From positions 67,704,001 to 67,768,000 of the forward strand of contig OX597831.1 in NCBI GenBank assembly GCA_951406725.2: DNA of 64,000 bases, in the 5' to 3' direction. The stretch's first letter is position 1. Every line of letters starts with the position of its first letter. Origin of the DNA: Octopus vulgaris. Lineage: Eukaryota. This document shows positions 10,616 through 52,410 of this stretch, one piece after another. The notes beneath the pieces are model-generated. The model searched no databases and was not told the origin of the DNA. It saw only the letters and a list, made by a program, of their open reading frames with translations. Both the position numbers and the translations under genes were made by a program.

Positions 10616-11350
10616 CATCTGAATGTGGCTAGGGACAGGGCAGGGCGGTGGGGGTGTTACTGATGCATTTAGCCCCAGGCGATCATCAACGTCACCAGGA
10701 GGGCTGACACCATCACGGCGTCCTCTAGCCTGCAAAGGGAGATCATTCCCCGAAGAAGCGGATGCCACATACGGACCTAGGTTTCAAGGTGTTTGCCTAT
10801 TATCAACGTATGGCAGGCACCGCTCCCTCGACGAACGACTCTCTGTGCAGGCTATATATAAAGATTTTCACAGTAAATACATTTACTGATGTAGAAAATC
10901 TGTTCGACAGCCATAATAATTCTCTAAACGAGATATAGACAGTAACTGCTCCATAGCATAAGGGACGTTGGCCATCTGAATGTGGCTTATTGCTGTCGAA
11001 CAGATTTTCTACATCAGTAAATGTATTTACTGTGAAAATCTTTATATATAGCCTGCACAGAGAGTCGTTCGTCGAGGAGCGGTGCCTGCCATACGTTGAT
11101 AATAGGCAAACACCTTGAAACCTAGGTCCGTATGTGGCATCCGCTTCTTCGGGGAATGATCTCCCTTTGCAGGCTAGAGGACGCCGTGATGGCGTCAGCC
11201 CTCCTGGTGACGTTGATGATCGCCTGGGGCTAAATGCATCAGTAACACCCCCACCGCCCTGCCCTGTCCCTAGCCACATTCAGATGGTCAACGTCCCTTA
11301 TGTTATGGAGCAGTTACTGTCTATATCTCGTTTAGAGAATTATTATTGCT
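10616..11350. mobile_element. Fold-back element built from two circularly permuted copies of a ~357-bp unit, in (TA)n
   Basis: catctgaatgtggct occurs at 10616 and 10973. 10989-11350 is an inverted full unit starting at a different register. Confidence 0.88.
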
Positions 11351-11371
11351 ATATATATATATATATATATA

Positions 11372-12049
11372 TCCCTCTCTCGCTCATTCTTCTTTCTGGT
11401 TTTCTCTACCATTCTCTCCCTTTCACGTTCCCTTTCTCTTACTCCTCCTCCTCCTCCTCCTCCCTCTCATCACTGACATGTGACCAGAGGCCATCTGTCT
11501 TTCTGACCACAGCCTTCAACAAGTGTAGACAGCTTCCTATCCCTTTCTTAAGCCGTTGTTCTCACGCGTTGAAAATAATTTTTCCTTCGTTCGGCTTAAC
11601 AATCCTTACTGTTCGTATTACTGTTATTCTACTTGTCCTGTCGTTTACTGTTTTTATTTGTATTTTTACTGCCTTGTATTGTTTTTACTGTCCTGTTTTT
11701 GTTACCACTTTTACCCCTCCACAAAAAAATCTCAAATTTTATTTAATTTGCTTTGCGGGAAGGACCGTTTCACAGAAGTCGTGTCTCGCCTTTACCTTCG
11801 AAACACGGACTAGACGAAACGGAGACGGCTGAAGAAGGGGAATGTTCCTTGTGTTGTATGTCTTGTACCAAGTTTTTTCGTTGTTTAAAAATAATGTCCG
11901 TTTCCATGGTTCCGCTTTTATGTTTTCATTTCTCATTGTGTTCGACGTTCTTTTGGTGTCCTGTACCCATATATGCATGTATATATACATATTGATGTAG
12001 GTACGTACATATATGTATGTATATATGCATGTTTTATTTATTATTTTGT

Positions 12050-12052
<3 letters not shown>
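11372..12052 (+). mobile_element. TA-flanked non-coding element (family P1) with permuted hammerhead at 11765-11850
   Basis: Homologous to 49780-50450: shared ccttcgaaacacg, ctgaWgaagggg, ggtgtcctgtac and gatgtaggtacgtacatatatgtatg. (TA)n on both sides. Confidence 0.75.
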
Positions 12053-15175: not shown

Positions 15176-15327
15176 ATATATATATATAGATCAATAAATG
15201 GTGGGGTTGTGTTGACCGCACGTGGAGAAATGATAAGTAAGGAAAAATTTTTTTAAAAATGCAGAATGGTCAAATGAAAGAAAATTTTAATAAAATGAGA
15301 AATTGATAAAATATATAAATATATATT

Positions 15328-15368
15328 TATTCAACCGGTTTTCGTCATTGTATGACTTGTCAAGAATA
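15328..15368 (-). ncRNA. Mirror copy of the U3-A8 hammerhead
   Basis: Exact reverse complement of 21699-21739. Confidence 0.75.
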
Positions 15369-15996
15369 TTTATGTTTTAAAAAGTTTTTTTAAAAATTAG
15401 AAAGGGGAAAAAAAGAAAATTGCATTGTTTTTTGTAAAAGAATAATGATAAAAATGTACAAAAATTAAAAAATAAGTTCTCCGATACATTGTGAGTTCGT
15501 TGTGTATCTTGAGTTTTATGGTTGTTTACGAAAAAATTACCTTGAGGTGTTAAGATCCAAAGGGATTAAGAGCATGTGTTGTGTTGTTAAATTCAGCATG
15601 TTTGCAGGACAGGAAGTAGTAGTAATTGTGGTCCTGGTTCTTCAGTTCCTGTGTTGTGAGTAAGGGGAGACAACTCTTTTGAGTTCTTCAATAAAACCCA
15701 AATTATAAAATTATCATTTTAGCTTCATTTGCGTTATCTTTTTTATATAATTGCTTGTTAACTTAACTTTCAGATTTTAACACTTTATTTATATTATTTT
15801 CTAATTATATAAATCTGCATAGACAATTGCATTTCAAATTGTCATATCATTTATAATAAAAATGATAGTAATAACAACAATAGTAAAAATGATATTTAAA
15901 GAATATAAGTTTTAGCTTGAAGTGATGAATGCATGGTATCTTTATATATTTGTGTTAGTCCATCCATGAAGAGTGAGGTAGAGAAAGGAAGTTTGA

Positions 15997-18900
15997 TCAA
16001 CGAGGAGTTTGCATATTAAGTTATGTTTGGAATTTTTCAATAAAGCGATTCTCCTTGTTAATTCTCTCCTGTGTGGTGATCCCGTCTTTACATTGGTAGA
16101 AGGGGAATATATAGAATTTTGGGTTTAAGTCTTTAGCACATGAGTCTAAGTGGTCACTCAGTGGAATTAGTCGGTATTCCGGGAGATTTATTTGTTCTTT
16201 ATGCACCGTTACTCGTTTACGTAACGGGAGACTCGTTTGTCCAACATAATTATGTTGGCAACCAGCGCATGTGAGAACGTAGATAAGGTTCTCGGAGGAA
16301 CAGGAGAAGTTAGTCTTGATTTTAAACTTCGTACCTTGTTTGAAGGTAAATTCAGAGCCTTCAAGTAGAAAGGGGCAGGTACCACAGTTTGAGCGTGCAC
16401 ATTTTTTTACTGTTGGGGGTGGATGTGGTGTGTGAAGTTTGGCATTTGTCAAGAGTTTTTTTTAAGATTTGTGTTGCCTTTTGCATTTGAGGATTTTGTG
16501 TGTATTTATAATGTTTTTCATTTTTGGGTCTGTTGACAGTAGACTGAGGTTTTGTATGATTGTGGTGTATGCTTCGATATTTTTGGGGTTGTGGGTGGAA
16601 ATGTATGGAAGTATTTTGAGGTTGTGTGTGGTGTTAGGTTGGGTGGTTTTCAGTGTAGTGTTGTCTAGTTCTTTGGCGCGTTTTATTCCATACTCTATAA
16701 GGGTGGAGGGATATTGACGTTGTAATAGTGTTTTTTTGAGGTCTTGAAGGCGTATTTCTCGTGTTTTTGGATCCGAGACAATGGTGCATACCCTTTTAGC
16801 TAAATTGAAAGGGATATTTGTCTAGGTGTGTTTTGGGTGGCATGAACTAAAGAGGAGGTATTGTTGTGAGTCTGTAGGTTTGTGGTAGATGTCTGTTATG
16901 ATTTCGTTCTTAGGTGTTTTTATAATTAGGAGATCAAGGAATGGGAGATGATGTTTGCTTAATTCCATAGTGAATTGGATGTTGGGATGTATGTTGTTTA
17001 GTATGGTTTTGAATTCCAGGAGTTTTTCATAAGGTTCTTTCCATATGATGAAACAATCATCTAAATACCTTTTCCAGTTTTCCATTAGGTAGGTGTGGAA
17101 AACATGTCCAAATTTCTGGCTTGATATTTCATAGAGTGACAGTTCGAAGTAACCCATTATGAGGTTCGCAAGGACTGGTGCAGCCTTGGTACCCATCGCA
17201 ATGCCACATTTTTGACGGTAGTGTGTGTCGTCGAAGAGAAAAAGATTGTTTGTCAGAATGAACTTGAGAGATTCTGTAATAAAAGACTTGTTAATGCGGT
17301 CAGGGAATGTCTCTGGGTGTTTTTCTAGCCAGAAGTCAATTGCCTCTATACCATACTCATGTGGAATGTTGGTGTAGAGGTTGATGACATCAAAGGATAC
17401 CAGGAGTGCCTCCTCGTTAACTGTTTTCGGGAGGTGTTTGAGCATGTCCAGATCATCCCTAATGAAACTTTTGATGTGGGTAAGGAAAGGTTTCAAAAGG
17501 ATGTCTAGGAAGTTACTCAGGCGGTGTGTTTCACAGGAGGTACCAGCCACGATGGGCCTTAGTTTTAGGTCCTCCGGTGCTTTGATGTTGATGTGGATGT
17601 CAGTGGAGAGTTTGCAGGCTTCGGTGATGTATTTGTTTTTATGGATTTTAGGAAGGCCATAAAAAAGGCTGGGCTTGCATTTGAAAATGGTGATATAATC
17701 CCTTTCTTTTTCTGTGAGTCCCTGGCCGTGTTGGCGTATGAGTGTGGTGAGGTTTCTGATTGTTTTTTGCTGTTTGTAGTTGTTAATAACCTCATAGAAA
17801 ATGTTATTGTTAAGCATGGAAAACACTAGGTGTTTATAAAATTCCGTGTCCATAAGGACCACAGCACTCCCTTTGTCCGCTTCTTTGATGGTGAGGTTTT
17901 TATCCAGTTGTATGTCACGTAGGTTTTCCCATTCTTCCTTACTGAAATTGGATTTTACCTTGGTTTTGCTTGGGGTAAAGGGGAGACTCTGGATGTGTTT
18001 GCAGAAATCGTCCAGTGTTTTATTTCTCCCTTGTGGTGGTAGGAAGTTGCTTTTATTTCTGATCAATGAATCGTCCCCATTGTTGATATCTGTCAAAGCT
18101 TCTGTTAGGCGAAGTTTTCTGCAGAATTCAGAAACGTCATCCTTGACCTCCGGGGGTTGGGTGTTCTTGGGGTGGGTGTGAATTTCAAACCTCTTGCTAG
18201 GATGTTGATTTGGGTTGGTGTCAGTGTTTTGCTGGAGAGGTTTATAATTTTTGTTTTCTTATTTTGGGTCTGTGTTAGCGGTGGTGTTTGTATTTCCCCC
18301 TCTGTCTAAAATATGGTTGTTGAGGTAAGGAGTGTATTCTTTGTTAAAGTTCTGGTTGTATGTGTAGGAGTGTTTTTGGGTGGGGAGGTTGGAGGGGGGT
18401 AGGTAGTTGTCGTATTTGTGTTGGTATGAGATGCGATGGTGTAAGGATTTGTGAGAAATGCGATGGGTTTGTGGGTGTGTGTCTGGTAGATTGTATGGGG
18501 GGATGTAGGGGGGATGTAGTTGTGGTGATTGGGTTCGTGTGGGATGTGAGGGTTTGGAGATCTGTAGGATATGTGGTAGGAATGTGGTTGTTGGATGGGT
18601 GGACTATAGGGGGTTCGTTGGGTGGGTATTATATGTATCGGTGTGGGTAGGATGCCTTGTTTGTTATTGGTGTGAGGGAGGGGAGCCTTGAGGGGAGGAT
18701 AATTTCTAGTGTATGGGAGGTTCTTGAAGGTTCTAATCGGTGGGGGAGGGGTGTTAGAGTGATTGGAAAACCAGGTTTTGTGGTGGGTCTTGTTTGAGAT
18801 GTTTCGGGGGGAAAAGGTTTTTTATATGGTTGGGGGAGGTTGTGTCCTGTTAGGAGGGGGTTTGGAGAGTATGTGTATTTGAGGTGCGGTTTGGAATGGT

Positions 18901-19758
18901 GTTTATGGGGTACAGTGGAAGTCTGTGTTGTGGGTACTTTTATGAATGGGTTTTGGGATTTATGGTTTAATATGAATTGTGTTTCATAGTTGAGGAAGAA
19001 ATCTTTGTTGTTTTCCCAGCGTTTAAGGGAGGTTCGTTCTTCCTTTTCACATTCATCTTTCCATAGTTTAATAACAAGTTCGAGGGGCTGTTCGTTGGTG
19101 TGTGAGGTTAGTTCTAGAAGTATCTCATCGTCTATTTTTGTGTATTTTTGTTCGTGGTTTTGTGCTCTGAGTTTTAGAAGTTCTACTTCGGTTTTCATTT
19201 TTTCCAATGTTAGTTTTTCTCTTAGGGAGCGTTGTTTTTCAGGTTCGTCTGGGATGTGTTTGATTTGGAATTTTCGGGGTAGTATGATAGGGGAGGAGTT
19301 TAACCATTTGTCGTAAATTTCAGCTTTGTTTTGGTTTTTGAGCATGTTCCAGAAGAGAAGTTTTCTGTTGTGTAGTTTCTTAGTCTAAGTAGTGATGATC
19401 TGGTTTTTTGTGCTGGGGTTGAAGTGTGTTCCTTCTGTGTGTTGAGTGGTGTCTGAGGTCTCTTTGGCGTTGAATTGGTAAGTAGAGTTTTCAGTGTAGT
19501 GTTGATTTCATTTAGGTTTACATCTATCTTATCCGAAAGTAGAGTTTTCAGTGTAGTGTTGATTTCGTTTAGGTTTACATCAATTTTATCCGAAAGTTGT
19601 TGATGATGGTTGTTTTCTGAGTTGTCCCGGGATTGATGGAGAAGTTCGTCAATTTTTTTGGAGAATGTAAGTAGATGTGTATTGAGTACTTTGAGTTCTT
19701 TTAGAATGGTCTTATTGGTGACTGTCTCTGTAAGAGTGCTCTTGTTTTTCGGAGGCAT
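15997..19758 (-). pseudogene. PLE polyprotein (N-terminal extension, RT, thumb, Cys motif, GIY-YIG endonuclease), disrupted by stops and frameshifts
   Basis: ORF pieces 19300-19758, 18629-19345, 16822-18096 and 16021-16452. Motifs: KEADKG, YGLPKIHK, RPIVAG, SFDVINLYTNIP, GIAMGTKAAP, WKRYLDDCF, YHKPTDSQQYL..SSCHP, CARSNCGTC, LIYVLTCAGCQHNYVGQT. Confidence 0.93.
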
Positions 19759-20274
19759 TCTGAATCACACGTGTGGTAGAGGGTACAGTTCAATAAATGG
19801 TGGGGTTGTGTTGACCGCACGTGGAGAAATGATAAGTAAGGAAAAATTTTTTTTAAAATGCAGAATGCTCAAATGAAAGAGAAGTTTGGCATTTGTCAAG
19901 AGTTTTTTTTAAAGATTTGTGTTGCCTTTTGCATTTGAGGATTTTGTGTGTATTTATAATGTTTTTCATTTTTGGGTCTGTTGACAGTAGACTGAGGTTT
20001 TGTATGATTGTGGTGTATGCTTCATATTTTTGGGGTTGTGGGTGGAAATGTATGGAAGTATTTTGAGGTTTGTGTGTGGTGTTAGGTTGGGTGGTTTTCA
20101 GTGTAGTGTTGTCTAGTTCTTTGGCGCGTTTTATTCCATACTCTATAAGGGTGGAGGGATATTGACGTTGTAATAGTGTTTTTTTGAGGTCTTGAAGGCG
20201 TATTTCTCGTGTTTTTGGATCCGAGACAATGGTGCATACCCTTTTAGCTAAATTGAAAGGGTATTCAGCTAAAA

Positions 20275-21070
20275 GGGTATGCACCATTGTCTCGGATCCA
20301 AAAACACGAGAAATACGCCTTCAAGACCTCAAAAAAACACTATTACAACGTCAATATCCCTCCACCCTTATAGAGTATGGAATAAAACGCGCCAAAGAAC
20401 TAGACAACACTACACTGAAAACCACCCAACCTAACACCACACACAACCTCAAAATACTTCCATACATTTCCACCCACAACCCCAAAAATATCGAAGCATA
20501 CACCACAATCATACAAAACCTCAGTCTACTGTCAACAGACCCAAAAATGAAAAACATTATAAATACACACAAAATCCTCAAATGCAAAAGGCAACACAAA
20601 TCTTTAAAAAACTCTTGACAAATGCCAAACTTCACATACCACATCCACCCCCAACAGTAAAAAAATGTGCACGCTCAAACTGTGGTACCTGCCCCTTTCT
20701 ACTTGAAGGCTCTGAATTTACCTTCAAACAAGGTACGAAGTTTAAAATCAAGACTAACTTCTCCTGTTCCTCCGAGAACCTTATCTACGTTCTCACATGC
20801 GCTGGTTGCCAACATAATTATGTTGGACAAACGAGTCTCCCGTTACGTAAACGAGTAACGGTGCATAAAGAACAAATAAATCTCCCGGAATACCGACAAA
20901 TTCCACTGAGTGACCACTTAGACTCATATGCTAAAGACTTAAACCCAAAATTCTATATATTCCCCTTCTACCAATGTAAATACGGGATCACCACACAGGA
21001 GAGAATTAACAAGGAGAATCTCTTTATTGAAAAATTCCAAACACAACTTAATATGCAAACTCCTCGTTGA
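20275..21070 (+). pseudogene. Inverted second copy of the PLE thumb and GIY-YIG coding region (frameshift near 20605)
   Basis: ORFs 20229-20618 and 20582-21070 are nearly identical in translation to the minus-strand region 15997-16800. Confidence 0.92.
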
Positions 21071-21698
21071 TCAAACTTCCTTTCTCTACCTCACTCTTCA
21101 TGGATGGACTAACACAAATATATAAAGATACCATGCATTCATCACTTCAAGCTAAAACTTATATTCTTTAAATATCATTTTTACTATTGTTGTTATTACT
21201 ATCATTTTTATTATAAATGATATGACAATTTGAAATGCAATTGTCTATGCAGATTTATATAATTAGAAAATAATATAAATAAAGTGTTAAAATCTGAAAG
21301 TTAAGTTAACAAGCAATTATATAAAAAAGATAACGCAAATGAAGCTAAAATGATAATTTTATAATTTGGGTTTTATTGAAGAACTCAAAAGAGTTGTCTC
21401 CCCTTACTCACAACACAGGAACTGAAGAACCAGGACCACAATTACTACTACTTCCTGTCCTGCAAACATGCTGAATTTAACAACACAACACATGCTCTTA
21501 ATCCCTTTGGATCTTAACACCTCAAGGTAATTTTTTCGTAAACAACCATAAAACTCAAGATACACAACGAACTCACAATGTATCGGAGAACTTATTTTTT
21601 AATTTTTGTACATTTTTATCATTATTCTTTTACAAAAAACAATGCAATTTTCTTTTTTTCCCCTTTCTAATTTTTAAAAAAACTTTTTAAAACATAAA

Positions 21699-21739
21699 TA
21701 TTCTTGACAAGTCATACAATGACGAAAACCGGTTGAATA
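21699..21739 (+). ncRNA. Minimal type I hammerhead ribozyme, U3-A8 core variant, at the PLE 3' end
   Basis: TATTC-TTGACAA-GTCA(TACAA)TGAC-GAAA-ACCGGT-T-GAATA. Stem I is TATTC/GAATA, stem II is GTCA/TGAC, stem III is palindromic. Confidence 0.75.
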
Positions 21740-22050
21740 AATATATATTTATATATTTTATCAATTTCTCATTTTATTAAAATTTTCTTTCATTTGACCA
21801 TTCTGCATTTTTAAAAAAATTTTTCCTTACTTACTATATATATATATATATATATATATATTCCTTATGAGTAGCTGAAGCCGTATTCGTTCGTAATAGC
21901 ACTCTGTATTTCATACTTAATTTATATATATCGTCGAAAGCGCGATAAGCTGTGATATTCGTCTATAAATAGCATCTGTTATAAGTGTACAATGTTAAAA
22001 ACTGAAATATATCAGTAGCGGATGAGAGGTGTCCACAGCGGTGATGTATT

Positions 22051-49779: not shown

Positions 49780-50455
49780 TATAATTATGACGCGAAACTC
49801 TATAACTCTTTCTTCTCTCTTTCGTTCACCCTCTTTGGCTTCCTTCCTCTCTATCTCTCTCTCACTCCTCCTCATCTCTCTCACAGCCGGATCGACGAAC
49901 TTCCTTTTGCTGACGGCCTCCTTCAAGTAAACATGTTTCTTCTTGCGCTCTTGAATTTTTCCTCGTCTAGGCTTATAGGCCCTCATTGTTTGTTTTCCTG
50001 TCCTGTTTCTATTCCTTCTTGTACTGTATTTTTTTGTAATTGTATTTTTATTTTGTAATTGTTTTTAATTGTATTGTTTTTACGTCCTGTTTTTGTCACT
50101 ATTTTTTTCCTTGTTTTTACCCCTCTGCAAAGGAATTTTATTTAATTCTTTCGCAGGAAGGATTAGTTCGACGAGTCGTGTTCTGTCCTCACCTTCGAAA
50201 CACGCTGGAGTTGAACTAGGGACAGCTGATGAAGGGGATTTTTCCTTGTGTAATTTGTCTTGTACTCTGTTTTTTTTTCGTTGTTAAAAAAAGGTCCGTG
50301 CCATGCTTGTTTTTACGTTTTCGTTTCTCGTTAAGTTCTACGTCTATTTGTGGTGTCCTGTACTCACGTATATATATTTATATATGCATGTATATATACT
50401 TGTAGATGTAGGTACGTACATATATGTATGTATGTATATATTTTATTTATTACAC
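49780..50455 (+). mobile_element. TA-flanked non-coding element (family P1) with permuted hammerhead at 50164-50245
   Basis: Diverged homolog of 11372-12052, directly upstream of the truncated PLE. Confidence 0.75.
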
Positions 50456-50487: not shown

Positions 50488-52410
50488 ATGTCGTTACATT
50501 GACGACATTATCGGTGCCACCTCACTCTCCCGTGAACATCTAGATTCCTTCCTCTCTTTCGTCCAATCTTTCCATCCAGCCCTCCACTTCACTTCCACTA
50601 TCTAAAACACCTCTGTCTCCTTCCTCAACATTTCGGTTAGCATTCTTCACTCCACTCTTACCACCTCCATTCACTACAAACACACAGACTCACACTCATA
50701 CCTCAACTTCTCTTCCTCCCACCCAGAACACACCAAGCTTTCCATCCCCTATTCCCAATTCCTCCGTCTACGTAGGCTCTGTAGTGACGACCATGACTTT
50801 GAGACTCAGTCTCAACATATGGCTCACCACTTCACCCTACGTGGATACCCCCTCACCACTATCCACACCGCCCTTGCCAGAGCACGGTCCGTGGACCGTG
50901 TATCTGCTCTCTCTCCCCGAACCCGCCCTGTAGTCTCCCGCCTCCCTTTTCCCCTCACTTACCACCCCACGATCCTACGTCTCCAACGCACCATTCTTCG
51001 AGCTTTCCGTCATCTCCAGTCCGACCCGTCCACTTCACACCTCTTCCCTAACCGACCCCTCCCCTCTTTCAAACGAGCCCACAACCTTCGAGACCTTTTG
51101 GTCCATAGCTCCTTCCCTGACCCTACCTCCCAGCCCGGCTCGTTCCCCTGCTCCCGCCCACGTTGCCGCACTTGCCCTTACCTCTCCAACACCACCCACC
51201 TCACTAGCACCCACCATCGACCCTATCCCATCATCCACTCCTTCACCTGCACCTCCAGCAATATTATCTATTGCGTCTCTTGCTCTCTCTGCAATTCCTT
51301 GTACATCGGACAAACGGGACGCCGCTTGGCTGACCGGTTCGCGGAACACCTTCGTGACATCCACCTTGCGAACGACACACCGGTCTCACGCCATTTCCGC
51401 TCCACCAGTCACTCCTTGCAACACCTATCTGTGTTTGGTTTGTCCTTACACAGAGGCCATCCGGATTCCCGTTTGCGCCGTGAACAGGAATTAATCTTCT
51501 CTCTTCGCTCTTATACGCCATTTGGTCTCAACTCTCCCCCCTCTCTCCCCCCTCCTCACCTATCCTTCCCCCCCCCCCGACCCCTACTTCTTCAGTCCTT
51601 CATCCTTTCACCCCCTACTCCCCTTCCCTTCTTCCCTCTTTCTCCCTCCCTCCTTCCCTCTTCCCTCTGCTCCCTCACTCCCCTTCTCTCCCCCGCCCCC
51701 TCTTTCCTCCTTCCTCCTTCCTCCCCTCCCCTCCCCTCCCCTTCCTTCCCCCTCCTCTCTCCCCCTCCCCTCCTCTTCCCCCTCCTCCCCCTCTTCTTCC
51801 CCTCCCCTTCTCCCCCTCTTCTCCCCCTCTTCTCCCCTTCTCCCCCTCTTCTCCTCACTACACCACACGACTTTACACATCACACCATATATGATGTGCC
51901 ATACTAATACATACACCAACTAATACATACTAATACGTACTAATACATACTAATACATACTAATACATACACCAACCCTATACATACACACGTCCAGACC
52001 CCTCATACGCACTTATACTCTCTCATACACACACACACACACTTATACATACTAATACGTACTAATACATACACCAACCCCATACATACGCCTGTCCAGA
52101 CCTATCCTAGGGTCATTCAACCCTATTATCAACCCTATTATCTCCCCTTATTTCGCTCTCGCGTCTCATGTTTGATCTTTGACCTCTGGCCGAAATCAGA
52201 TCGCCATGTTGATTCGTTAGTTACTGCACGCATTTTTTTTCTCTCCTTCTTTCTGTGTTTTTTTTCTCTCTGTGTATCTTTCTGTTGAAGAGCGTAGGCT
52301 CGAAACGTTAAAGACTTGTTTTATTTATATTTCCTGAGCGCCATACTAATACAATTGTTTGTTTGTTTTCCACCTGCCTTCGTCTTTTGTCTATTTTCAT
52401 AAAGCTTCCC
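50488..52410 (+). mobile_element. 5'-truncated Penelope-like element (RT C-terminus, GIY-YIG, CT-rich 3' region, hammerhead pLTR)
   Basis: RYIDDII at ~50493, IHYKHTDSHSYLNFSSSHP, CSRPRCRTC, IIYCVSCSLCNSLYIGQTGRRLADRFAEH. Begins and ends at TA repeats. Confidence 0.9.
52277..52314 (+). ncRNA. Minimal type I hammerhead-like motif (CUGUUGA core)
   Basis: TCTTT-CTGTTGA-A-GAGC(GTAG)GCTC-GAAA-CG-TT-AAAGA. Confidence 0.7.

Follow-up and report, generated by a model that had tools for sequence, protein, structure and literature searches.

The question raised by this locus is whether a short stretch of a repeat copy in the genome of Octopus vulgaris, at 11765..11850 of the 64,000-nucleotide window of DNA analysed here, is a hammerhead ribozyme with its blocks in permuted order, and whether its helices are maintained by selection on structure rather than on sequence. 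Both had been proposed in a sequence-only reading that compared two copies of the repeat, P1, in the window. Comparison of these copies with their relatives makes it likely, in our view, that the first is a slightly decayed copy of a putatively self-cleaving hammerhead, non-circularly permuted and opened in its core, which is carried by a non-coding Penelope-type retroelement and whose helices have been kept by compensatory changes between subfamilies. The two copies are as follows.

11372 to 12052 (ends approximate), + strand: P1 element copy (the 11.7-kb copy), a 5'-truncated, non-coding Penelope-type repeat between (TA)n runs
49780 to 50455 (ends approximate), + strand: second P1 copy (the 50-kb copy), of the other subfamily
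50120 to 50237, + strand: the fold in the 50-kb copy, with 32 of 32 pairs intact; helix X at 50120-24, hairpin H at 50125-56, stem II 5' strand at 50157-61, predicted cut after 50182, GAAA at 50197-200, CUGAUGA at 50226-32

The fold and the placement of stem II

All boxes quoted in the sequence-only reading were found at their claimed positions in both copies. In the 11.7-kb copy they are CCGTTTC (11765-71), CGTG-T-C (11780-85), TCGCCT (11786-91), CCTTC-GAAA-CACG (11795-807), GAAACGG (11816-22), AGACGG (11823-28), CTGAAGA (11829-35), and AGGGG (11836-40); in the 50-kb copy they extend from TAGTTC at 50164-69 to AGGGG at 50233-37. As had been stated, the core boxes of the two copies match except at N7 (A versus U) and H17 (C versus U), and the outer helix differs in sequence yet pairs, with 7 bp in the 11.7-kb copy versus 6 bp and a U.G in the 50-kb copy. 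The six pairs of stem I in the 11.7-kb copy do include one C.A mismatch (11789/11825) and one U.G beside the cut, and the cut predicted after 11785 agrees with hammerhead numbering. The proposed extent, 11765..11850, holds the boxes but is too short, as the modelled fold is larger and begins at 11714. Its parts in the 11.7-kb copy are listed below.

11714 to 11718, + strand: CCCCU, the 5' strand of helix X, with 11836-40 as its predicted partner; the least certain helix
11719 to 11758, + strand: hairpin H, whose closing pair abuts G10.1; a private G-to-A change at 11721 breaks one pair
11759 to 11763, + strand: GAAGG, the 5' strand of stem II, which starts with G10.1 and lies upstream of the cut
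11765 to 11771, + strand: 5' strand of helix P (the outer helix above), in which five of seven pairs show two-sided change
11780 to 11791, + strand: block S, with the stem III 5' strand, U16.1 (11784), C17 (11785), the predicted cut after 11785, and the stem I 5' strand (11786-91)
11795 to 11807, + strand: block G, with the stem II 3' strand (C11.1 at 11799), GAAA (11800-03) and the stem III 3' strand
11816 to 11822, + strand: helix P 3' strand, running straight into stem I
11823 to 11835, + strand: block C, with the stem I 3' strand (private G-to-A change at 11825) and the CUGAAGA core box
11836 to 11840, + strand: AGGGG, the 3' strand of helix X, immediately following A9; read as the in-line strand of stem II in the alternative discussed below
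11846 to 11850, + strand: conserved UUCCU, which can pair with 11760-64 and so compete for the stem II 5' strand

Conservation was scored in an alignment of 103 P1 copies, which omits 49 of the 152 copies collected, those without the upstream half, and in which about 58 copies had been retrieved for their similarity to the pair in the window; the sample is weighted to two subfamilies. Each of the fixed hammerhead core letters (C3 U4 G5 A6 G8 A9, G12 A13 A14, A15.1-U16.1, G10.1-C11.1) is kept in 101-103 of the 103 copies, and at H17 102 copies carry C, U, or A. All three stems, I to III, are present around the core, and I and III covary in P1. Stem II forms five Watson-Crick pairs with 11795-99, each in 93-102 copies, and in helix X a Watson-Crick pair is kept in 88-101 copies per position. 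UUCCU at 11846..11850 is kept in most of the 103, and when the 50-kb copy is folded to minimum energy with nested pairs, UUCCU does pair with the 5' strand of stem II. Single-strand folding (z 0.47 and −0.44) was uninformative because the fold is pseudoknotted, and Rfam returned no hammerhead match up to E 10, which is likewise uninformative for a permuted fold. The motif is not a product of chance. A pattern for the core, covering blocks G and C, had 2,573 matches in the genome versus 0 for a reversed control, and a descriptor scan of 345,878 bases, from loci partly picked for the motif, gave 74 matches versus 1 in reversed or complemented controls.

The blocks stand in the order S, G, C and not in the order C, G, S of types I, II, and III, whose three-way junction forms free of pseudoknots. 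In the fold as modelled, the core is opened between A9 and G10.1, which would lie on different strands, with G10.1 76 nt upstream of A9. Viroids reportedly offer a precedent for an insertion at hammerhead position 9/10.1. The claim of a permuted hammerhead is thus borne out as to block order, but the arrangement is not that of the plain type SGC as published, as the stem II strand comes from upstream and two further helices lie upstream. Since block C would not be contiguous, the wiring would be a variant undescribed in the literature that we searched.

The main question then is where the 5' strand of stem II lies. In one alternative, the locus is a plain type-SGC hammerhead in which, after one extra A, GGGG (11837-40) pairs with CUUC as an in-line stem II, and the upstream AAGGA and the downstream UUCCU make up the outer helix. 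A relaxed descriptor with an in-line stem II fits 71 of the 152 P1 copies. The type-SGC descriptor of Eckert et al. (2023), in which the stem II strand comes directly after CUGAnGA with at most 1-2 inserted nucleotides, matches none of the 152, and in the other families in-line pairing is close to chance. An in-line stem II is possible in P1 only, and there it is weak, with two G.U among its four pairs. This plain type-SGC reading with an extra A had been our own initial one and was dropped after stem II was compared across families.

For that comparison, motifs were picked on the core boxes and stems I and III only; the resulting 135 copies fall into 10 groups, six of which have at least two members. 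In these six, the five bases before GAAA make 4.0-4.8 of 5 Watson-Crick pairs with the upstream strand, 1.6-2.5 with the in-line strand, and 1.2-3.0 with a control window of equal width. The upstream strand sits 19-26 nt 5' of the cut, and its 5-mer is distinct in every family. The four groups of a single copy are less clear (upstream versus in line: 4 v 1, 4 v 3, 3 v 2, and 4 v 4). Among the 85 copies, from six families, that have a perfect stem II, 74 show a hairpin of at least 4 bp abutting G10.1; helix X came out weak in the automated cross-family check. Within P1, stem II and helix X rest on conservation because neither has a two-sided change, and an upstream stem II draws its support from five other families besides P1; across families stem II covaries. 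Against the in-line reading, neither these five families nor the Naiad tails in print offer a complement in line, but all have an upstream one of 5-6 bp, and in P1 the covarying hairpin H abuts the upstream strand. We therefore regard a plain type-SGC hammerhead as unlikely and prefer the core-opened fold.

Several further repeat families, unrelated by sequence, carry the core-opened fold (L032, L065, L066, L081, L091-L120, L124-L142), and a looser pattern for it had 3,714 matches in the genome versus 1,155 in the control. In one P1 subfamily (L239, L246, L250, L295), UU replaces the single A after CUGAUGA; it resembles the UU linker before helix X of another family and would fit an open, tolerant junction after A9.

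The P1 element and its 5' ends

The P1 family has at least 2,573 copies of roughly 0.75-0.8 kb, mostly dispersed, with a fixed 3' region and a variable 5' end; no coding frame was found in P1. Head-to-tail repeats occur at 12 loci (unit 744-814 nt in nine of them), and inverted partners occur among the copies. The 3' ends of the 152 copies stop in (TA)n in 56 cases, carry a further tail in 37, end otherwise in 5, and lack the anchor in 54. P1 shows the traits of a non-autonomous Penelope-like element or retrozyme, namely partial tandems, an optional 30-40 bp tail, 5' truncation, insertion in a microsatellite, and no ORF; tandems, tails, and (TA)n are marks of Penelope-like and Naiad elements (Craig et al. 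2021, PMC8557442). The Poseidon enzyme was shown to use two internal start sites (PMC11167929), to which we relate the two classes of P1 3' end. In some copies (L013, L018, L026, L028) the tail after the 3' end has a splice-donor-like AAG/GTAAGT, which recalls the intron of the Penelope terminal repeat. The 11.7-kb copy is closely preceded by a perfect inverted repeat of 211 bp, with arms at 10616-10826 and 11076-11286.

If P1 RNAs were cut at the predicted site before being copied, 5' ends should reflect it. An earlier mapping of ends by blastn was confounded by TA runs and was replaced by a census anchored on a pattern that lies downstream of the fold; it has 1,518 matches, and the first 90, all on one contig, were used. 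Of these copies, 38 extend at least 95 nt upstream of G12, and the 5' ends of the other 52 fall at −94 to +43 relative to G12. The two positions on either side of the predicted cut account for seven of these starts (p 1e-5 versus uniform), and 33 copies begin within 30 nt after it versus 5 within 30 nt before it (p 2e-6). In a partly overlapping set of 73 copies, 22 ends fall at −15..−1 versus 16 at −94..−16. By eye, about four of the ends included in the count resemble internal deletions, and many ends cluster at −7/−8, where there is a TA able to pair with the target; neither does away with the step in 5' ends. The ends are indirect evidence that template RNAs may often begin at the predicted cut. 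Because 49 of the 90 copies run across the site, many templates would have been uncut or re-joined.

A dip in depth over the core and contigs ending at 11785, in public sets, had been considered as a sign of cleavage. Both features are also seen in the putative DNA sets, and the public contigs (five putative RNA and three putative DNA sets) are for that reason uninformative on cleavage or expression.

These ends also bear on the possibility that P1 carries a conserved RNA structure that is not catalytic, for example one that binds a protein or stops reverse transcription, the ends then being due to stalling of the enzyme together with TA microhomology. It would account for the half of the copies that extend through the site and for the spread of ends over some 40 nt after it, with a cluster at TA; moreover, the published permuted hammerheads are slow (PMC10085705), and catalysis is here a prediction from sequence. 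On the other hand, all 13 core positions are without a change on the internal branches of the P1 tree while the stems vary, the ends step at the very site for which the cut had been predicted in advance, and few ends occur at the longer TA-rich runs that lie upstream. A non-catalytic structure is therefore improbable in our judgement, and we take the predicted ribozyme to be most likely active in the source elements.

Selection on the helices

The majority sequences of the two main subfamilies differ at 8 of the 32 modelled pairs; seven of these changes are two-sided, one is C-G to U.G, and none breaks a pair. Covariation among P1 copies is seen in helix P, in hairpin H, and in two of the stems (I and III), with two-sided changes in four of the six pairs of stem I and two of the four base pairs of hairpin H. 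In 33 copies chosen to span the subfamilies, 95.2% of the cells pair and 13 of the 32 pairs show two-sided change, compared with 40-47% of cells and 2-6 pairs in a control with slid partners. Shuffles of the same 33 copies reached the pairing or the covariation score in 0 of 500 cases and the count of two-sided pairs in 14 of 500, while the number of further pair types was not above shuffles (495 of 500 reach it).

As the copies are related, such shuffle controls overstate the support, and a tree of 103 copies was used for this reason. Internal branches, taken as those with at least three leaves, hold 38 changes, of which 29 keep pairing and 9 break it (7 of the 9 in helix P); at the tips 53 of 154 changes keep pairing and 101 break it. 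The contrast is significant (Fisher p 6e-6) in a test that omitted 11 changes on two-leaf branches (3 keep, 8 break) and on a tree that in part shares columns with the pairing test. The 13 core positions have no internal-branch changes and 16 changes at tips, while 60 stem positions have 54 internal-branch changes. The claim that substitutions are compensatory beyond chance is upheld by the two-sided changes, which exceed those with slid partners, and by the contrast of internal branches and tips.

The 11.7-kb copy itself looks different from its kin. It differs from the majority of 31 relatives at 15 of 392 positions (3.8%), whereas the 50-kb copy has, against its own subfamily majority, one difference, C-G to U.G. 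Stem I is restored in the subfamily: the mismatch at 11825 is private decay, since 28 of 29 relatives have G at this position. Likewise, 27 of 29 have a G at the position of 11721, which restores the pair in hairpin H, and the U.G beside the cut is common to all 29. With C.A mismatches in both stem I and hairpin H, the ribozyme of the 11.7-kb copy is probably weakened or dead, to judge by its pairing. The proposal that structure rather than sequence is under selection thus stands where the helices do vary, in stems I and III, outer helix P, and hairpin H, with the refinement that selection would act on retrotransposing source elements, the 11.7-kb copy being in decay. Since shared changes keep pairing and private ones do not, we read the data as selection on source elements able to spread, with inserted copies left to decay. 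This evolutionary control, by which shared changes preserve pairing and private ones do not, is the specific contribution of the present analysis.

Every core letter of the 11.7-kb copy is intact, as would be expected if this copy were kept by selection for a function in the host; its two private pair-breaking changes and 3.8% divergence are instead consistent with decay on a tip branch, and we consider a host function very improbable. That the pairing is an accident of common ancestry among repeat copies is scarcely credible and, we believe, already contradicted: although the copies are related, shuffles overstate the support, and further pair types do not exceed them, ancestry would have to explain seven two-sided changes with none broken between subfamily majorities, the contrast of internal branches and tips, and an identical layout in families unrelated by sequence.

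Mobilisation, proposed mechanism, and known systems

Another pertinent question is which enzyme mobilises P1. By eye, the Naiad_Obim and Naiad_Ovul consensuses end with the layout X, H, II, P, III, I in unrelated sequence, and three coral Naiad consensuses and two others end, in the published excerpts, with the same fold. In two Naiad consensuses from the nematode part of the published file, the core boxes stand in canonical order, and Naiad_Omin has no motif, so that the fold is not universal among Naiad consensuses. Naiads are reported by Craig et al. (2021, PMC8557442) to be without hammerheads, while the metadata of that paper tag several of them 'HHR_core' or 'HHR_half_core'. A Naiad-tail motif has 175 matches in the octopus genome versus 0 in the control, and lies downstream of a Naiad reverse transcriptase on the same strand at 9 of the best 30 loci and 3 of 7 more distant ones; it was absent from 14 loci around Naiad endonuclease fragments. 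No blastn likeness was found between P1 and 30 Naiad tails, and none of the P1 copies proved continuous with an ORF, such as that of Naiad with its N-terminal GIY-YIG and C-terminal reverse transcriptase; other Naiad lineages may still be the source. A Naiad mobiliser is put forward from the shared fold and target, and a Penelope-like reverse transcriptase of the Naiad type is the most likely one by this reasoning.

Neptune elements were considered as mobilisers and rejected. A Neptune fragment near a related motif has no link to it and runs on the other strand; the ORF of Neptune type at 50492 belongs to a separate insertion with its own canonical hammerhead; and P1 adjoins a young Neptune family (753-codon frames) at 1 of 13 loci, with (TA)n between. 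The insertion at 50492-52410 (+ strand) is a 5'-truncated Neptune-type Penelope element that starts right after the 50-kb P1 copy, retains traces of reverse transcriptase and GIY-YIG at 50492-51418, and has at its end, near 52280-52320, a minimal type I hammerhead of canonical order with a U3 variant; the same motif occurs in L357. A young Neptune element at 15234-21833 is in inverted arrangement (arms of 1,228 nt, 100% complementary), and in its relatives at other loci the frames of 753 codons are intact and preceded by an upstream frame. Its 3' end holds, by eye, a possible type I hammerhead variant at 15368-15328 (− strand), with U3/A8 for C3/G8, a stem II of 5 bp, and a stem III that is palindromic.

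In the mechanism that we propose, the upstream strand would deliver G10.1 on the RNA, and A9 would lead on to helix X rather than to stem II. A three-way junction of stems I, II, and P would take the place of the usual contact of loop I with loop II. Tandem or read-through transcripts would be cut after H17 into unit RNAs whose 5' end is the cut, and a Penelope-like reverse transcriptase, most likely Naiad, would copy these from internal start sites into (TA)n. Only source RNAs that fold correctly would spread, so that shared changes keep pairing and private ones do not.

Tentatively, and with somewhat less than even confidence, we suggest that P1 represents a natural hammerhead whose core is built from non-adjacent strands, that, with helices X, II, P, and III spanning the cut and retaining the products, it may be a reversible cut-and-join device yielding unit-length linear as well as circular templates, that it is the missing ribozyme of many Naiad elements from corals to octopuses, and that it is the first non-circularly permuted RNA in animal genomes. 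If it cleaves, it would explain why descriptor searches find no hammerhead in Naiad elements. The step in 5' ends would be a genomic footprint, by which the role of hammerheads in Penelope-like elements becomes directly testable. In the literature searched, mostly open papers, there was no account of the core-opened wiring or of permuted hammerheads in animals; Weinberg et al. 2015 could bear on this. That work is reportedly cited for hammerhead variants with additional helices.

Among known systems, the minimal type I hammerheads of Penelope-like elements (Cervera and de la Pena 2014, PMC4209133; review, PMC6765202) share with P1 the site in a terminal repeat, a proposed role in cutting precursor RNA, and an insertion between positions 9 and 10.1, where single inserted nucleotides are tolerated (PMC4209133). 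They are of canonical order and are thought to act as dimers with a tiny palindromic stem III, whereas P1, with a stem III of 5 bp, should act as a monomer; a canonical type I example lies 2 kb from the 50-kb P1 copy, in a Neptune element. The parts of PMC3088659 and PMC10162972 available describe short core insertions and length variants only. Animal (non-LTR) retrozymes (bioRxiv 10.64898/2026.07.22.740005) are likewise non-coding, hammerhead-bearing, tandem, non-autonomous Penelope-like derivatives, but their ribozyme is wired otherwise, and P1 is mostly dispersed and 5'-truncated, with partial tandems; the main text of that preprint, in the part available, does not mention octopus, cephalopods, or type SGC. 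Naiad elements (PMC8557442) share with P1 the targeting of (TA)n, partial tandems, inverted copies, a 30-40 bp tail, and, at the 3' end of several consensuses, the fold itself; P1 differs in being without an ORF and without detectable likeness to octopus Naiad tails.

The nearest relatives in wiring are the type-SGC (and CSG) non-circularly permuted hammerheads (Eckert et al. 2023, PMC10085705); type SGC has in common with P1 the core order S, G, C, the pseudoknotted crossing of stems I-III, a linker between stems I and II some 3 nt long, and perhaps an extra helix that ties these two stems. Helix P would by its geometry join the far ends of stems I and II, and it covaries, but it uses an upstream strand. 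In type SGC, stem II follows CUGAnGA directly, whereas in P1 its 5' strand is upstream, and hairpin H and helix X come between A9 and G10.1. Eckert et al. (2023) assume that block C is uninterruptible; if P1 cleaves, it would break the assumption that CUGAnGA and the stem II strand cannot be separated (PMC10085705). Finally, the type-SGC RNAs described there come from metatranscriptomes and none from the genome of a known organism, whereas P1 has thousands of genomic copies in an animal, and its cleavage would move non-circular RNA permutations from unassigned metatranscriptome contigs to animal genomes.
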